A program made the translations under genes and the position numbers. A stretch of 24,000 nucleotides of DNA, taken from positions 746,894 through 770,893 of the forward strand of contig NZ_CP007446.1 of the NCBI RefSeq assembly GCF_000600005.1, given 5' to 3'. This stretch comes from Snodgrassella alvi wkB2. Lineage in GTDB: Bacteria; Pseudomonadota; Gammaproteobacteria; Burkholderiales; Neisseriaceae. Shown here piece after piece: positions 18,014-23,746 of the stretch. A model generated the notes under the pieces. It was given only the letters and a program-made list of their open reading frames with translations, was not told the origin of the DNA and did not search any database. Numbering within the stretch: the stretch's first letter is position 1; each line of letters begins with the position of its first letter.

Positions 18014-21000
18014 TTATACAGCCGAAACACTCAAATAATTATCAGCAGTACCTAAAAGTTTATCCTGTGGCGGTGATATTGCCATGCTGCTATCAGCAAG
18101 TCCTGAACTCATAGCCACCATTGCCTGCTTGAGTAACATCGCATCAGCGTAATTAAAACCGGAATTGATAATTTCATTGGCATAGTTATCCGGTGCCGCA
18201 TTCTTTACAGGAATTCTGGCAAGGCCTGCGGCATAATTGCCTGAATCTTCATGCAGACTATTGTCAGCAGAATGGAACAGGTGATTACTGAGAGCCGAAT
18301 CTTTTTCAAACTGCGGAATAAGGGGCATATCAACAGGTTTTCGCTTTGTAAGCAGGCTTAATAAAGTTTGCCCATGCTTACCATCTTCGGTAAATATAAT
18401 ATTGCCTAAATCAGAATCTTTGCCCCGGTTTTTCAAATTATAGCCGAGCAGATAAATAGTATCGCCTTTAACCCCGTTTTTAATCACTATTCCGTCTTTA
18501 TAAGCACTGAAAGTAAGCGATTTTATCTGATCAACCTTAATATAAGACAATCCATTATGGTCTTCAATTGTAGTGATGCCGTCGCCGTTTTTAATTACAT
18601 ACATATCATCACCCATACCGCCATTTAGATAGTCATTGCCTTTACCACCGTTAAGCAAATCATTACCGGCTCCGCCATATAAATTATCATCGCCCAGGCC
18701 TCCATACAGCTGATCATTGCCATCATCACCCTGTAAATTATCATTGCCGCTGCCGCCACTGATAAAATCGTTTCCATCTCCTCCGAAGATAACGTCATTA
18801 CCACTGGTTTTTGCATTATCGCTATTTACAAGTTCTTCACTGTCGCCATAAATAATATCATTACCATCACCACCATAAATCACATCATCACCACCACTGC
18901 CAATCAGCCGGTCGTTACCGATACCTCCATCAATGTAATCATTACCATAACCCCCATTAATATAATCGTCTCCTCCTTCACCATATAAAACATCATTTCC
19001 AGAAAAACTTTCTAATTCTTGCAAAACATCTCCATATATTCTGTCATTACCCTCTCCGCCGTATATAACATCATCGCCGGTATATTTAGAATTTTCGGTT
19101 GTAATTAAAATAGGATCACTAGAACCACCCGAACCAATTCCCCAACCAATAATATTATTGAAATCACCGATAATTATATCGTCGCCATTTCCACCATAAA
19201 GGTAATCATGACCACCGCCGCCGAATATAACATCATTTCCTTCGCCGCCATCAACTTCATCAGTACCATATCCGGCATCAATAATATCATTACCATTTCC
19301 GCCAAACAGATGATCATTACCGTTTATTGAACAGTCAGCATCGACAAAATTTTTATTCTCATCACCCCATATCTTATCATCGCCATCGCCCCCGAAAATC
19401 CAATCGTCTCCACCGCCGCCTATTAAACTATCATTGCCGGCGCCGCCATCAATATAGTCTGCACCCTGAATTTCTTTGTTATTCTCATCATCCCCGTAAA
19501 TAACGTCATTGCCTTCATCGCCATAAAGCTCATCATTACCGTGGCCGCCATAAATTGTGTCATGATCAGCGCCGCCATGAATCACATCGTCTCCGTAGCC
19601 ACCATACAGCTCATCATTACCGGCATCGCCCCAGATATGATCATTGCATGTTAATTGTGAAAAATTTCTATTCATATCATAAGAATCGCCATATATAATG
19701 TCTTCGTCATTACCGCCATAGAGAAAATCATCGCCACCACCACCTACAATAAAGTCTTTACCGGCACCGCCATAAATGGTGTCACTACCATGATATTGGC
19801 TATCAAGTATTTCTCTTGATGTCTTTCCACCATCATCGCCATAAATTTTGTCATCACCATCGCCGCCAATAATCACATCATTGCCGCCACCACCAATGAT
19901 TTCATCATCACCTTCGCCGCCATCAATGTGATCATCTCCATGAGCCCTGCCAGCAAGAGAATTTAAGTGACCTAGTCTAACAAGACCATCGCCATATAAG
20001 ATATCTTTGCCCTTGCCACCGACAATATAATCATTGCCACCCATACCAAAAACGACATCATCTCCTTCTTGCGTACTGCCCGGTGCTACCGAATCACCTT
20101 CGATATAATCATTCAGATTACCACCAACAATAAAGTCATTGCCCTCATCACCATATAGAAAATCTCCCCCATATGACATACCGTCCACAGCAGAGATGGG
20201 CTCATCAAAACAGTCGCTAATACCAGAGATAATCAAATAATTACCTCTTTCTACAAATATACCCCAGTTTGGGCCAGCATGAATCAGTTTTTTACCATAA
20301 TCAGGCATCTTCCAGCGCTCATCCGGCTTCTCTCGTTGAGATATCGTTAAATGATTATTGGCAAAAATATAATCATCTCCGGCACCACCTCTGATGGTAT
20401 CGGAGCCACCGCCGCCTGCGAGCAGATCCATGCCATCGCCACCCAGAATCACATCATCACCGGCCATGCCATCAATAGCATCGCCGCCGTCCAGCCCCGA
20501 AATTTCATCATCATTGGCTGTGCCGAAAATAACATCCTCAAAGCCGTTTTCTTGTTTACCATCGATAATACGGCCGTCGGCACTGCGCTTATCCCAATCA
20601 TAGTGATAATGGCCTTTAAGAGACTCTAACTCTTCCTCAAAATGGCCTTCTACATGAATGATTTTCGTGCGCCAGTCGCCCAGAATTTTATTTTTTTCCT
20701 TAGGCGGGCGCATATTGGGTAAATTAATGCCGAGTTTATTTCCTTTAAGCTCATTCCATCCCTCAATAGTAAGAATATCTTTATTGTCTGTCAGGGACTG
20801 AATGCATAAATCACCGGTTTTATTCAGCCACACCTGCCATTTATTATCCTCTGACTGCCATACATTCAGCTCTTTCCCTATCCACTGATATGATGAAAAA
20901 ATCTTATTGTCCAGATAGATATAGCCATTACCATCACTATCGATAATACGATCCTGCCCATCATCTGCATTGAAATAATAACGGTCTGTTCCCTCACCAC

Positions 21001-22855: not shown

Positions 22856-23746
22856 TTACATCTTTCCTGCCTGCTTCTTAATTAATGCGCCTTTATCCGT
22901 AACCACCCAGCTATCCAGTATGCCGGCTATATTTTTTTCGGTTTGCTGCCATTTTTCTAAATAAATCCGGTCATAGCTTATATCTACCACCACTGGCATA
23001 CTGTCGATATAGAATTCGTGGGTGCAAGATTGAATTTCGCCTGTAAAATCACATTGAATATAGGTTTTAATATCACCTTGCGGATTTTTGGACATCAAAA
23101 TATCCGGCCCGGCGATATTATCCTGCCACGGCTGATTGGTGCTGGGATCAATCCCATTATTGGCTTTGAAATAAGTTAAGCCATATATTTTTTGTGGTTG
23201 TTCAAAATAGTCAAAGTGCCAGACTTCTTTTTTAGCTTGCTGAGTGTCAGTAAACGCTTTATTAAAATTAAGTGGCTGATGTGGATCAACAATATTGTAA
23301 ACAATGGTATAGCCCCATGGAAACGGCTTTCCCTGTGGAATCAAAGTTCTGTTATCACGCAGATAATCCTCTTCCGTCTGCTCCCTATAGCTCATCACCG
23401 CGCCATCTGTCAGCCGGTACTGAAAAGCAAAACTACTAATAGGCAATTGGTAAGTAATCGGCGGGCGCTGATACTTTTGTGCTTGTTTGCTGGTATCGAA
23501 ATCGCCCGGGTCGCCGATATAGTGTACCCAGGTAAACACCACACCACCGGGGATACTTACCGGCTTGCCGCCCAGATTACCAATAGAATCATAGCGGCCA
23601 AATCTGTCCTGATGGCGTACTATAGGCGTCGGTTGCTGTTGCGGCGCCGCTTTATCGCCGGTTTGCTTAACATCATCACAACCAGCCAGCAGTAGCAGGC
23701 AACTTAAACAGATAAGCTTGAAATACAGTTTAAATATGCTCTTCAT
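22856..23746 (-). CDS. lipoprotein of unknown function, encoded immediately upstream of and co-oriented with the RTX gene
   Basis: The signal peptide has the lipobox LLLAGC (Cys23) followed by DD. GAGGA lies upstream of the ATG. Its stop is 52 nt before the RTX start with no terminator between them. Confidence 0.8.
   Translation of the reverse strand: MKSIFKLYFKLICLSCLLLLAGCDDVKQTGDKAAPQQQPTPIVRHQDRFGRYDSIGNLGGKPVSIPGGVVFTWVHYIGDPGDFDTSKQAQKYQRPPITYQLPISSFAFQYRLTDGAVMSYREQTEEDYLRDNRTLIPQGKPFPWGYTIVYNIVDPHQPLNFNKAFTDTQQAKKEVWHFDYFEQPQKIYGLTYFKANNGIDPSTNQPWQDNIAGPDILMSKNPQGDIKTYIQCDFTGEIQSCTHEFYIDSMPVVVDISYDRIYLEKWQQTEKNIAGILDSWVVTDKGALIKKQAGKM

Follow-up and report, generated by a model that had tools for sequence, protein, structure and literature searches.

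The closest described systems are two lipoprotein-linked pairs. Smlt3024 and Smlt3025 of Stenotrophomonas maltophilia K279a are an effector (X-Tfe) of the X-T4SS and its lipoprotein inhibitor (X-Tfi; PDB 6PDK) (PMC6759196). [quoted passage not shown] The same authors found that Smlt3025 shares the topology of FrpD and proposed FrpC and FrpD as a possible effector–immunity pair (PMC6759196). FrpD binds FrpC(1-414) with a Kd of ~0.2 nM, and a part in host-cell interaction has been proposed for it; a weak match (E 0.005) between Smlt3024 residues 4-49 and a 67-aa fragment annotated as FrpC has also been published. A 2019 jackhmmer search from Smlt3024 lists S. alvi wkB2 proteins of 1595 aa (E 2e-41) and 1609 aa (E 1.4e-41). 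That large RTX proteins of Snodgrassella are homologous to Smlt3024, and that Smlt3025 is similar to FrpD, has been on record since that year.

We analysed a cassette of the honeybee gut bacterium Snodgrassella in a 24,000-nucleotide stretch of DNA, referred to here as the window. The cassette consists of two genes, one for a giant calcium-binding secreted protein and one for a small lipoprotein, and its features are collected in Table 1.

Table 1. Coordinates of the lipoprotein–RTX operon in the window
Feature	Position (nt)	Strand	Remark
AT-rich region upstream of lipoprotein gene	23747..24000	-	presumed promoter region of operon
Lipoprotein gene, 296 aa	22856..23746	-	remote Smlt3025-family member, putative immunity protein
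Lipoprotein signal peptide and lipobox LLAG/C, aa 1-23	23678..23746	-	followed by Asp-Asp at +2/+3
Intergenic spacer, 54 nt	22802..22855	-	contains RTX-gene RBS (GAAAGAGG); no terminator
RTX protein gene, 1595 aa + stop	18014..22801	-	gene call of identical contig also 1595 aa
Smlt3024-like N-terminal domain, aa 1-270	21992..22801	-	conserved core aa ~5-200; putative toxic 'warhead' and/or lipoprotein-binding domain
Variable middle module, aa ~271-555	21137..21991	-	greatest divergence among strains
RTX nonapeptide block 1, aa 556-609 (or 565-609)	20975..21136	-	
RTX nonapeptide block 2, aa 777-813	20363..20473	-	
RTX nonapeptide block 3, aa 884-1402	18596..20152	-	about 35 repeats, with brief breaks
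Non-repeat C-terminal region, aa 1403-1595 (193 aa) + stop codon	18014..18595	-	presumed uncleaved T1SS secretion signal region
Intrinsic terminator ending operon	17959..17980	-	9-bp stem, 5 GC pairs, then T7; directly after RTX stop

The preliminary description had placed the lipoprotein gene upstream of the RTX gene on the same strand, with no terminator between the two and a strong one only after the RTX gene. This layout was recovered in full as a conserved operon, and no terminator-like site was found on the minus strand between the genes. The 52-nt gap given earlier is corrected to 54 nt. The longest RTX open reading frame spans 18014-22840 on the minus strand, but we take the ATG at 22801 as the start because of its ribosome-binding site, orthologues that begin MSQPQ, and the gene calls on identical contigs. 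The AT-rich region ahead of the operon lies within an intergenic stretch of ~1.1 kb, which in the identical genome CP091515.1 extends to a divergently oriented HSP33 gene. Promoter-like hexamers occur in it at chance frequency, and none of the Fur-box matches is convincing (best 13/19, a level reached by background at ~1.1 per kb in the window). The large open reading frames of the window outside the operon all received ordinary assignments; as stated earlier, no T1SS ABC, MFP, or TolC gene and no RtxC-type acyltransferase gene is among them. RTX proteins of this kind at present carry labels such as 'hypothetical', 'calcium-binding protein', or 'alkaline phosphatase'.

The length, lipobox, and Asp-Asp pair reported for the lipoprotein were all found as described. 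Three cysteines (C23, C232, and C241) are invariant in 35 homologues. The NCBIfam model NF050129 recognises the lipoprotein (E 9e-4) and 33 of the 35 family members (best E 2e-7), no other family being matched; since every score lies far below the 500-bit equivalog cutoff, we regard the protein as a remote relative, not an equivalog, of Smlt3025. When the family profile was searched against the PDB, 6PDK was the sole significant match (E 1.3e-4). It was also the only Foldseek match at E<=1e-3 (E 1.9e-7, prob 1.0, TM 0.47/0.55) for the AF2 model of the lipoprotein (pLDDT 74.7). Profile and predicted fold thus both make the lipoprotein a distant relation of Smlt3025, which confers immunity to the effector Smlt3024. 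Like Smlt3025, it has a lipobox and conserved pairs of Cys residues, features that point to a place outside the cytoplasm.

In the RTX protein, Pfam detects HemolysinCabind (PF00353) alone (E 5.5e-103, 17 stretches), and the nonapeptide motif GGxGxDxUx has 34 strict and 45 relaxed matches. These fall into the three blocks noted earlier, ahead of a non-repeat C-terminus whose length of about 190 aa proved to be 193 aa. This C-terminal region is presumed to be the secretion signal on the basis of the general organisation of RTX/T1SS substrates. The protein contains neither HExxH nor an Asp-Pro self-processing module (SPM) of the FrpC type (Pfam SPM model PF26745 unmatched), as had been stated; its single Asp-Pro, at aa 1229, lies within the repeat region. 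The further claim that a GxSxG lipase box is absent stands in part, in that no hydrolase family was matched but the bare pattern occurs twice (aa 556 and 874).

The first ~560 residues, which had been called unassignable, are not wholly so. A widespread family, with 278 representatives at E<=1e-3, takes in the first ~200 aa, with coverage concentrated on aa 5-200 and with Y31, G38, Y41, G47, V48, G56, A59, H116, W130, T131, L132, P135, G155, and W163 invariant. The predicted structure is all-helical over aa 1-270 (pLDDT >90 for aa 1-260), and the best PDB structural match to this model was not significant (E 0.37). The middle module is predicted with low confidence and recurs only in relatives from Snodgrassella and in a small number of further RTX proteins.

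An N-domain profile built from 36 sequences aligns with Smlt3024(1-308) by hhalign at 94.4% (E 9.5e-8, 120 columns), pairing window aa 40-169 with Smlt3024 36-164. The 1595-aa S. alvi wkB2 protein in the 2019 list is probably the counterpart of the window protein. A homologue, P0104, aligns to window aa 7-309 (E 3.8e-23) and ends in the XVIPCD type-IV signal PF20410; this model also matches homologue P0125, whereas Pfam gave no XVIPCD match on the window protein. By its domain content, the window RTX protein is not itself an X-Tfe, and the N-domain is the part that the two kinds of protein share. The likeness to the Stenotrophomonas pair thus comprises a homologous N-terminal domain, a homologous and fold-similar lipoprotein, and a lipoprotein gene directly upstream on the same strand. 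The differences lie in the remainder of the protein. Smlt3024 has 440 aa and an XVIPCD end for VirD4/T4SS. The window protein lacks XVIPCD; its N-domain is followed by a variable module of 285 aa, by RTX repeats numbering about 45, and by a C-terminus of the T1SS type. At ~17-21%, identity to both Smlt3024 and Smlt3025 is low.

A lipoprotein-like gene lies directly upstream of the N-domain gene at four loci outside Snodgrassella. Its product matches the lipoprotein family in Acidovorax (hhalign 99%, E 5.6e-18), on the contig of an XVIPCD effector (hhalign 99.3%, E 1.6e-20), and in Paracidovorax (E 1.8e-15), and weakly in a Burkholderiales MAG (E 6e-4). By gene order and profile matches, the lipoprotein and N-domain form a cassette that is conserved in different genera and with different secretion systems. 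The preliminary description had held that a lipoprotein gene found apart from RTX genes would count against the pairing; in all nine Snodgrassella contexts examined, the gene or gene array abuts an N-domain-carrying RTX gene.

In Snodgrassella, unlike the Smlt3024/Smlt3025 locus, the lipoprotein gene is amplified into arrays of 1, 2, 2, 3, 3, and 5 copies, with the RTX gene at the end of every array and the arrays at three different chromosomal sites. Across loci, lipoprotein identity tracks N-domain identity. In a strain with 99% identical flanking genes, identity falls to 65% for the lipoprotein and 40-74% for the RTX protein, and the middle module retains 40-57% where flanking genes are 99% identical. 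At one locus, an 83-codon remnant of the RTX 5' end follows each upstream lipoprotein copy. In its copy number and divergence, the Snodgrassella locus shows signatures of a polymorphic toxin locus. Rhs, CDI/CdiA-CT, and MafB are polymorphic toxin systems with orphan immunity arrays, and the locus resembles them in combining a conserved scaffold for delivery with a variable, putatively toxic end. The presumed immunity gene lies next to the part encoding this end, and tandem extra copies of it, remnants of the toxin gene, and strong divergence between close strains are seen. The arrangement differs from theirs in being mirrored, with an N-terminal variable end and with immunity genes and remnants accumulating upstream, an orientation that a C-terminal secretion signal would lead one to expect. 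A further difference is that the scaffold belongs to RTX/T1SS rather than to T5SS or T6SS.

We put the probability at about 0.6 that the pair is an effector–immunity operon like that of Smlt3024/Smlt3025, with an RTX scaffold attached to the effector domain where Smlt3024 has a type-IV secretion signal. Of the three options offered in the preliminary description, its toxin/immunity-like pair is the best supported. This reading rests on the kinship of the N-domain with Smlt3024 and of the lipoprotein with Smlt3025, on conservation of the cassette across genera and secretion systems, on the signatures of a polymorphic locus, on the experimental precedent of Smlt3024/Smlt3025 (PMC6759196), and on features that set the protein apart from pore-forming cytolysins. 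We regard the cassette as most likely directed at competing strains, and not at the host. The 1595-aa protein would be exported by an unlinked type I secretion system through its C-terminal signal and calcium-driven folding of its repeats. Its N-terminal region, composed of the Smlt3024-like helical domain and the hypervariable module, would by analogy with Smlt3024 slow or stop the growth of competitors from their periplasm, the most plausible targets being other Snodgrassella strains in the bee ileum. The lipoprotein, anchored on the periplasmic side of a membrane, would bind the N-terminal domain and protect the producer and its kin, and the diverged tandem copies of other strains may broaden immunity against the variants of rivals.

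Several points weigh against this effector–immunity reading. A T1SS releases its substrates into the medium, and the N-domain family has no known path from there into the periplasm of a target. The N-domain model is without a PDB structural match, so no catalytic or binding mechanism can be named, and the homology to Smlt3024 and Smlt3025 is remote in both identity and NCBIfam score. The fastest-diverging part of the protein (aa 200-600) is not the Smlt3024-homologous part, and co-variation of lipoprotein and N-domain would also arise if the two bound each other without toxicity, for instance as an anchor. In addition, the presence of a T1SS in Snodgrassella rests on a preprint, according to which one T1SS is the usual complement of bee-associated Neisseriaceae and Snodgrassella has lost it about 10 times independently. 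Some precedent for antibacterial T1SS/RTX proteins exists. The RTX bacteriocin RzcA of Rhizobium leguminosarum was reportedly described by Oresnik et al. in 1999, and Cdz of Caulobacter is a T1SS-dependent antibacterial, although systems of the RzcA/Cdz type are not known to use a Smlt3025-like lipoprotein.

Co-variation of the lipoprotein with the N-domain would fit any tight binding pair, including one that serves in anchoring or adhesion. An outer-membrane lipoprotein would then capture the N-terminus of the secreted RTX protein on the producer's own surface, in the style of FrpD and FrpC, for sticking to the ileum or for biofilm formation and with no toxicity. Many large RTX proteins are adhesins. 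The frpDC operon is matched in gene order and architecture, FrpD holds FrpC(1-414) with subnanomolar affinity and has been proposed to act in host-cell interaction, and the topology of Smlt3025 is that of FrpD (PMC6759196). We nevertheless consider this explanation unlikely. Up to five diverged tandem lipoprotein copies per single RTX gene would be hard to explain for an anchor, as would strong divergence between strains whose flanks are 99% identical, and both are typical of immunity genes. The same cassette also serves a type-IV-secreted effector with experimental toxicity and immunity. FrpD was matched neither by sequence nor among the top 50 folds, and the self-processing module that could provide covalent attachment is missing. 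Finally, FrpD is an outer-membrane lipoprotein, whereas Asp at +2 of the window lipoprotein would speak for retention in the inner membrane, provided that the sorting rule of E. coli, unproven for Neisseriaceae, applies.

The resemblance to frpDC could instead reflect common descent, the pair being genuine divergent orthologues of FrpD and FrpC with the same role as FrpC in Neisseria meningitidis. Both organisms are Neisseriaceae, and both have an operon in which a giant RTX gene follows a lipoprotein gene and to which T1SS genes are not linked (frpDC; PDB 5EDF, 6SJW). The RTX protein has in each case a long non-repeat N-terminal region, which in FrpC binds the lipoprotein. The weak published match of Smlt3024 4-49 to an FrpC-annotated fragment points the same way, as do Acidovorax relatives of the N-domain, in which an FrpC-type SPM is readily detected (E 2e-48 to 6SJW). 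That match is also the one datum bearing on the loose likeness of the first 45 residues to the FrpA/FrpC N-terminus suggested in the preliminary description. Homology of the pair to FrpD/FrpC, which the preliminary description had entertained, was nonetheless not demonstrated, and we judge orthology quite improbable. Neither the lipoprotein nor its family profile matched FrpD (5EDF) in the PDB sequence search, FrpD was absent among the best 50 Foldseek matches of the lipoprotein model, and the window pair has no SPM and no Fur box that stands above background upstream. Full-length FrpC was not reported as a match in the published Smlt3024 searches. In S. gandavensis, moreover, an SPM-RTX locus is separate and has its own lipoprotein array, unrelated to the present lipoprotein family. 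The link to FrpD/FrpC is indirect, through the kinship of the lipoprotein with Smlt3025 (6PDK).

Host-directed activity, in which the RTX protein would act on gut epithelial or immune cells of the bee and the lipoprotein would only protect the producer from the N-domain or chaperone it, appears very improbable. The RTX family is rich in host-acting toxins, Snodgrassella is in direct contact with the ileum epithelium, and the protein shows partial NCBIfam similarity to RTX hemolysins. It resembles HlyA, CyaA, and LtxA in its nonapeptide repeats, non-repeat C-terminal region, and presumed T1SS export, but differs from them in having no nearby RtxC gene and no hydrophobic domain (KD19 maximum 1.08, threshold 1.6). 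The hemolysin similarity is confined to the repeats and scores far below cutoff (RTX_toxin model NF033943, 275 bits against 1000), the one N-domain relative to have been characterised targets bacteria, and the strain-level polymorphism and immunity-like arrays point to bacterial targets. A pore-forming acylated RTX cytolysin was rejected on the absence of RtxC in the window, the KD19 maximum, and the RTX_toxin score.

A broader proposal, to which we give somewhat less than even odds, is that RTX/T1SS proteins with swappable N-terminal domains, Smlt3024-like or other, form a mirror-image class of polymorphic interbacterial toxins. Such proteins would carry an N-terminal warhead, with immunity lipoprotein genes and toxin 5' remnants piled upstream, and the RTX body would take the warhead across the outer membrane of a rival, giving strain-level territoriality in the bee gut. 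A second Snodgrassella locus (L013), in which six unrelated lipoprotein copies precede an SPM-containing RTX protein, may be another branch of this class, and FrpC/FrpD would by extension be an antibacterial effector–immunity pair.

If the effector–immunity reading is true, interbacterial toxins with immunity proteins would be delivered not only by secretion systems of types IV, V, VI, and VII but also by type I. Snodgrassella can be cultured, is genetically tractable, and has a gnotobiotic host available, and it would then be a convenient test system, suited to studying the function of the Smlt3024-like domain and its delivery by an RTX scaffold and to testing the published idea of meningococcal FrpC and FrpD as effector and immunity proteins. 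The exclusion of strains from one another in the bee gut would then have a further possible cause, this cassette, in addition to the T6SS/Rhs toxins already known.

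The lipoprotein gene and the RTX gene of this Snodgrassella, a Neisseriaceae member from the bee gut, are in an operon-like arrangement (table), and each product is 100% identical to its counterpart in CP091515.1. The preliminary description of this operon was correct save for small details: the lipoprotein gene lies directly upstream, the RTX protein contains three repeat blocks, and a terminator follows only the RTX gene, with no terminator-like site found on the minus strand of the spacer. The gap, previously given as 52 nt, is 54 nt because the RTX gene starts at 22801. This start was preferred to that of the longest ORF on the basis of its GAAAGAGG ribosome-binding site, the MSQPQ starts of orthologues, and gene calls of 1595 aa on identical contigs.

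Features discussed in the text, with positions in the window, in the RTX protein (aa), or in the named comparison locus
Feature	Position	Strand	Details
Lipoprotein gene	22856-23746	-	296 aa; lipobox LLAG/C at signal-peptide end, then Asp-Asp
RTX gene, supported start	18014-22801	-	ATG at 22801; 1595 aa
RTX longest ORF	start 22840	-	alternative, longer reading
Second N-terminal module	21182-21900		RTX aa ~300-540
Nonapeptide repeat blocks	aa 565-609, 777-813, 884-1402		three blocks
C-terminal tail	after block 3		193 aa, non-repeat
Terminator	17980-17959	-	9-bp stem then T7, directly past RTX stop
High-GC island	7600-11724		GC 0.57-0.62
TnpB-like ORF	10420-11724		within the island
Fatty-acid hydroxylase and desaturase genes	11963-14207		GC 0.33-0.37; beside IS element
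L002, RTX locus	6056-16963		Logan SRR30564026 contig
L006, lipoprotein array	6918-9818		S. alvi MEIS01000126
L011, split RTX locus	4113-11075		Acidovorax sp. GBBC 1281
L013, separate array	1006-10144		Snodgrassella gandavensis LMG 30236
L036, lipoprotein locus	2310-3957		Undibacterium sp. TC9W

The remaining large ORFs in the window all received ordinary assignments: MurE-like ligase, LexA-like peptidase, ClpX, D-Ala-D-Ala carboxypeptidase, SDR, Fur-family regulator, tet(C)/tetR(C), IS200/IS605, fatty-acid hydroxylase, desaturase, nitrilase-family hydrolase, SNF transporter, and class-II amidotransferase. As noted earlier, none of them encodes a T1SS component or an RtxC-type acyltransferase. 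A Fur-box scan gave matches at background level only. The high-GC island (surroundings ~0.42) includes tet(C) and tetR(C) together with an IS200/IS605 tnpA and the TnpB-like ORF; over the 2.8 kb searched, plasmids of Klebsiella, Xanthomonas, and uncultured bacteria match it at 100% identity. The island is a tetracycline-resistance module recently acquired by the bee-gut symbiont. The hydroxylase and desaturase genes stand out from the remainder of the window as unusually AT-rich.

Pfam recognizes RTX nonapeptides alone in the RTX protein (E = 5.5e-103). The protein contains neither HExxH nor a self-processing module (SPM) of the FrpC type, in agreement with the preliminary description, and its single Asp-Pro, at aa 1229, falls within the repeats. 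NCBIfam matches to serralysin, ZapA, and PueAB are limited to the repeats and score far below cutoff, so a metalloprotease, lipase, or esterase was rejected, the first being contradicted also by the absence of HExxH. Hydropathy reveals no segment hydrophobic enough for a pore-forming helix, and on this ground, together with the absence of RtxC from the window, a pore-forming toxin was rejected.

The N-terminal region, previously left without assignment, contains at aa ~5-200 a domain resembling the Stenotrophomonas maltophilia effector Smlt3024. A word-indexed homologue search, covering 8000 candidates, listed only Snodgrassella fragments. When 1.8 billion representatives were searched exhaustively with RTX aa 1-540 (HMMER), 278 relatives emerged at E ≤ 1e-3, with coverage centered on aa ~5-200; the matched region forms the extreme N-terminus of proteins of 65 to >3100 aa. 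A Pfam scan of 19 relatives showed RTX repeats in eight and, at the C-terminal end of two, XVIPCD, the Xanthomonadales-type T4SS effector signal; one of these two, P0104, aligned with window aa 7-309. Smlt3024(1-308) was reconstructed from the printed supplementary alignments of PMC6759196 and compared with a profile of 36 N-domain sequences; hhalign gave a probability of 94.4% (E = 9.5e-8, 120 columns), pairing window aa 40-169 with Smlt3024 36-164. As judged from this profile comparison, the N-domain and Smlt3024 are homologous. According to the same paper, 221 large proteins of many genera including Snodgrassella, most of them RTX proteins, have N-termini similar to Smlt3024, and the supplementary jackhmmer table contains an S. 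alvi wkB2 protein of 1595 aa (E = 2e-41) and an S. alvi protein of 1609 aa (E = 1.4e-41) (PMC6759196). These lengths agree, to within one residue, with the shorter and the longer reading of the window ORF.

Fourteen positions of the N-domain profile are invariant, among them H116, the W130-T131-L132 triplet, P135, and W163. AlphaFold2 predicts a confident all-helical domain for aa 1-270 (pLDDT mostly >90) and predicts residues 270-540 poorly. Foldseek of this model against the PDB gave nothing significant (best E = 0.37), and therefore the fold gives no clue to the biochemistry; a single-sequence PDB search returned nothing meaningful, and no Pfam or NCBIfam model covers the domain. The second N-terminal module recurs at aa 62-297 of P0134, a different RTX protein of 1485 aa that matches through this module alone and not through the Smlt3024-like region, which suggests that N-terminal modules are shuffled among RTX proteins.

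The lipoprotein has no Pfam family, and its single NCBIfam match is weak: NF050129, "Smlt3025 family type IV secretion system inhibitor" (E = 9e-4). A database search yielded 85 clusters of homologues, those named by source all from Snodgrassella, and several homologues often share one contig. In an alignment of 35 homologues, the lipobox Cys and two more Cys are invariant, and 33 of the 35 individually match NF050129 and no other family (best E = 2e-7). A single-sequence PDB search gave nothing meaningful; the profile of this alignment is significant for one PDB entry, 6PDK, the Smlt3025 crystal structure (E = 1.3e-4). The AlphaFold2 model (mean pLDDT 74.7, core above 80-90) likewise has 6PDK as its sole Foldseek match at E ≤ 1e-3 (E = 1.9e-7, probability 1.0, TM 0.47/0.55). 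The lipoprotein is thus homologous and similar in fold to Smlt3025.

In all Snodgrassella contexts retrieved, at three different chromosomal sites, the lipoprotein gene or array directly adjoins an RTX gene with the N-domain. One lipoprotein copy is present in the window type (L007-L010) and in L002-L004, two in L094 and in L092/L093, three in L005 and in L006, and five in S. gandavensis L001. Beyond the genus, a 287-aa Acidovorax gene matches the lipoprotein profile (hhalign 99%, E = 5.6e-18) and has an N-domain protein directly downstream, and a 299-aa gene that immediately precedes the gene for the XVIPCD effector P0104 matches it as well (99.3%, E = 1.6e-20). An HMM scan for N-domain and lipoprotein-like ORFs in 79 loci, collected originally with a different aim, added two N-domain occurrences, in Paracidovorax and a Burkholderiales MAG, each with a lipoprotein-like ORF immediately upstream (E = 1.8e-15 and a weak E = 6e-4, respectively). 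The pairing is therefore kept across genera and two secretion signals, and the independent occurrence of the lipoprotein gene that the preliminary description had raised against its own reading was not found in these contexts, the two genes being paired in Snodgrassella and beyond. In Acidovorax L011, the order is a Smlt3025-like 287-aa gene, an ORF with N-domain and SPM, a DDE_3 transposase, and a 1163-aa RTX ORF; an IS insertion seems to have split the RTX gene. In Undibacterium L036, a Smlt3025-like 287-aa ORF (E = 1.5e-20 to the lipoprotein HMM) precedes a 242-aa ORF unmatched by the N-domain profile, possibly a divergent or degraded partner.

The identity of the lipoprotein tracks that of the N-domain locus by locus. 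Relative to the window, lipoprotein and N-domain are, respectively, 83-90% and 83-88% identical in L001, 65% and 57-68% in L002, 57-63% and 59-68% in L005, and 50-52% and 46-52% in L006. The locus is polymorphic between strains: between L002 and the window, flanking housekeeping genes are 99% identical, the lipoprotein 65%, and the RTX protein 40-74%, with the minimum within the first 1000 RTX residues at aa 200-600 (40-56%). The L002 RTX gene is called as 457 aa plus 1858 aa, 12 nt apart, and an additional 743-aa RTX gene lies between HSP33 and the lipoprotein gene.

In L006, an 83-codon remnant of the RTX 5' end, called as an 86-aa ORF, lies behind each of the two upstream lipoprotein copies, and another partial remnant precedes the first copy. 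The duplicated unit was therefore "lipoprotein plus start of toxin gene", and the array evidently grew by its duplication. A genome scan seeded with the FrpC SPM (at least 80 loci, including L013, L015, and L034, with N. meningitidis not among the 80 listed) identified a separate locus of S. gandavensis, L013, with six tandem ~272-aa lipoprotein genes (five complete ORFs and a sixth, 230 aa, at the locus edge) before a gene for a 1284-aa RTX protein whose FrpC-type SPM is 65% identical to that of FrpC. These lipoproteins were rejected as relatives, being unrelated by sequence to the present lipoprotein family and to FrpD in the PDB, and the RTX N-terminus likewise resembles neither the present families nor FrpD in the PDB. 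This locus suggests that lipoprotein arrays joined to RTX proteins with exchangeable N-termini are a recurring arrangement in Snodgrassella.

We assign a probability of roughly 60% to the window pair being of the effector-immunity type, an RTX effector with a protective lipoprotein. A toxin/immunity-like pair was among the options first offered, and the homology to Smlt3024/Smlt3025, the arrays, and the polymorphism favor it. Smlt3024/Smlt3025 is the nearest characterized system, the effector domain, inhibitor family, and gene order being common to both pairs. Smlt3024 inhibits growth only from the periplasm, forms a stable complex with Smlt3025, and is neutralized by a periplasm-directed lipoprotein form of Smlt3025 (PMC6759196). 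Unlike the X-T4SS effectors, the window protein lacks the defining XVIPCD and has an RTX/T1SS body instead. In Rhs and CdiA systems, arrays of orphan toxin tips and immunity genes lie downstream of the gene; the L006 array is the mirror image, as would be expected of proteins with a C-terminal secretion signal and an N-terminal variable end.

A pair serving anchoring or adhesion, after the pattern of FrpD/FrpC, would fit the gene layout and the co-variation of lipoprotein and N-domain; we consider it unlikely, because it leaves unexplained the multicopy, diverged lipoprotein arrays, the strain-level polymorphism, and the fact that a T4SS toxin shares the cassette. True orthology to FrpD/FrpC is harder still to sustain. 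One Acidovorax relative does join the N-domain to an FrpC-type SPM in one protein (E = 2e-48 to 6SJW), so the two architectures mix within the wider family, but orthology fails on the SPM and on similarity to FrpD (5EDF), which was undetected by PDB sequence searches with the lipoprotein or its profile and was not among the best 50 structural matches of the lipoprotein model. The suggested FrpD/FrpC likeness thus survives as an indirect relation only, and the earlier interpretation is borne out in part. A host-directed toxin is very improbable, as the window has no RtxC gene, the RTX protein has no hydrophobic domain, and the sole characterized relative targets bacteria.

Under the effector-immunity reading, the RTX protein would be exported by an unlinked T1SS; T1SS genes are unlinked as a rule in N. 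meningitidis, too. Bee-associated Neisseriaceae mostly carry one T1SS (preprint). The RTX N-terminal region, with its conserved domain at aa 1-200 and a hypervariable module at aa 271-555, may then reach the periplasm of neighboring bacteria and impair their growth, while the lipoprotein would protect the producer and extra copies may broaden that protection.

The pair is not a new category, because the 2019 paper already noted RTX fusions, Snodgrassella explicitly, and the likeness of Smlt3025 to FrpD, and proposed FrpC/FrpD as a possible effector-immunity pair (PMC6759196). Our literature search found no experimental work on RTX-fused members. What is added here is that RTX-fused versions in several genera come with a Smlt3025-like lipoprotein, that this lipoprotein has multiplied into arrays, which at one locus include 5' remnants of the toxin gene, that the cassette is hypervariable among near-identical strains, and that the PDB offers no structural relative of the N-domain as modeled. 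The central idea has been published before; the biology is plausible, is set in a tractable symbiont, and bears on the old question of FrpC.
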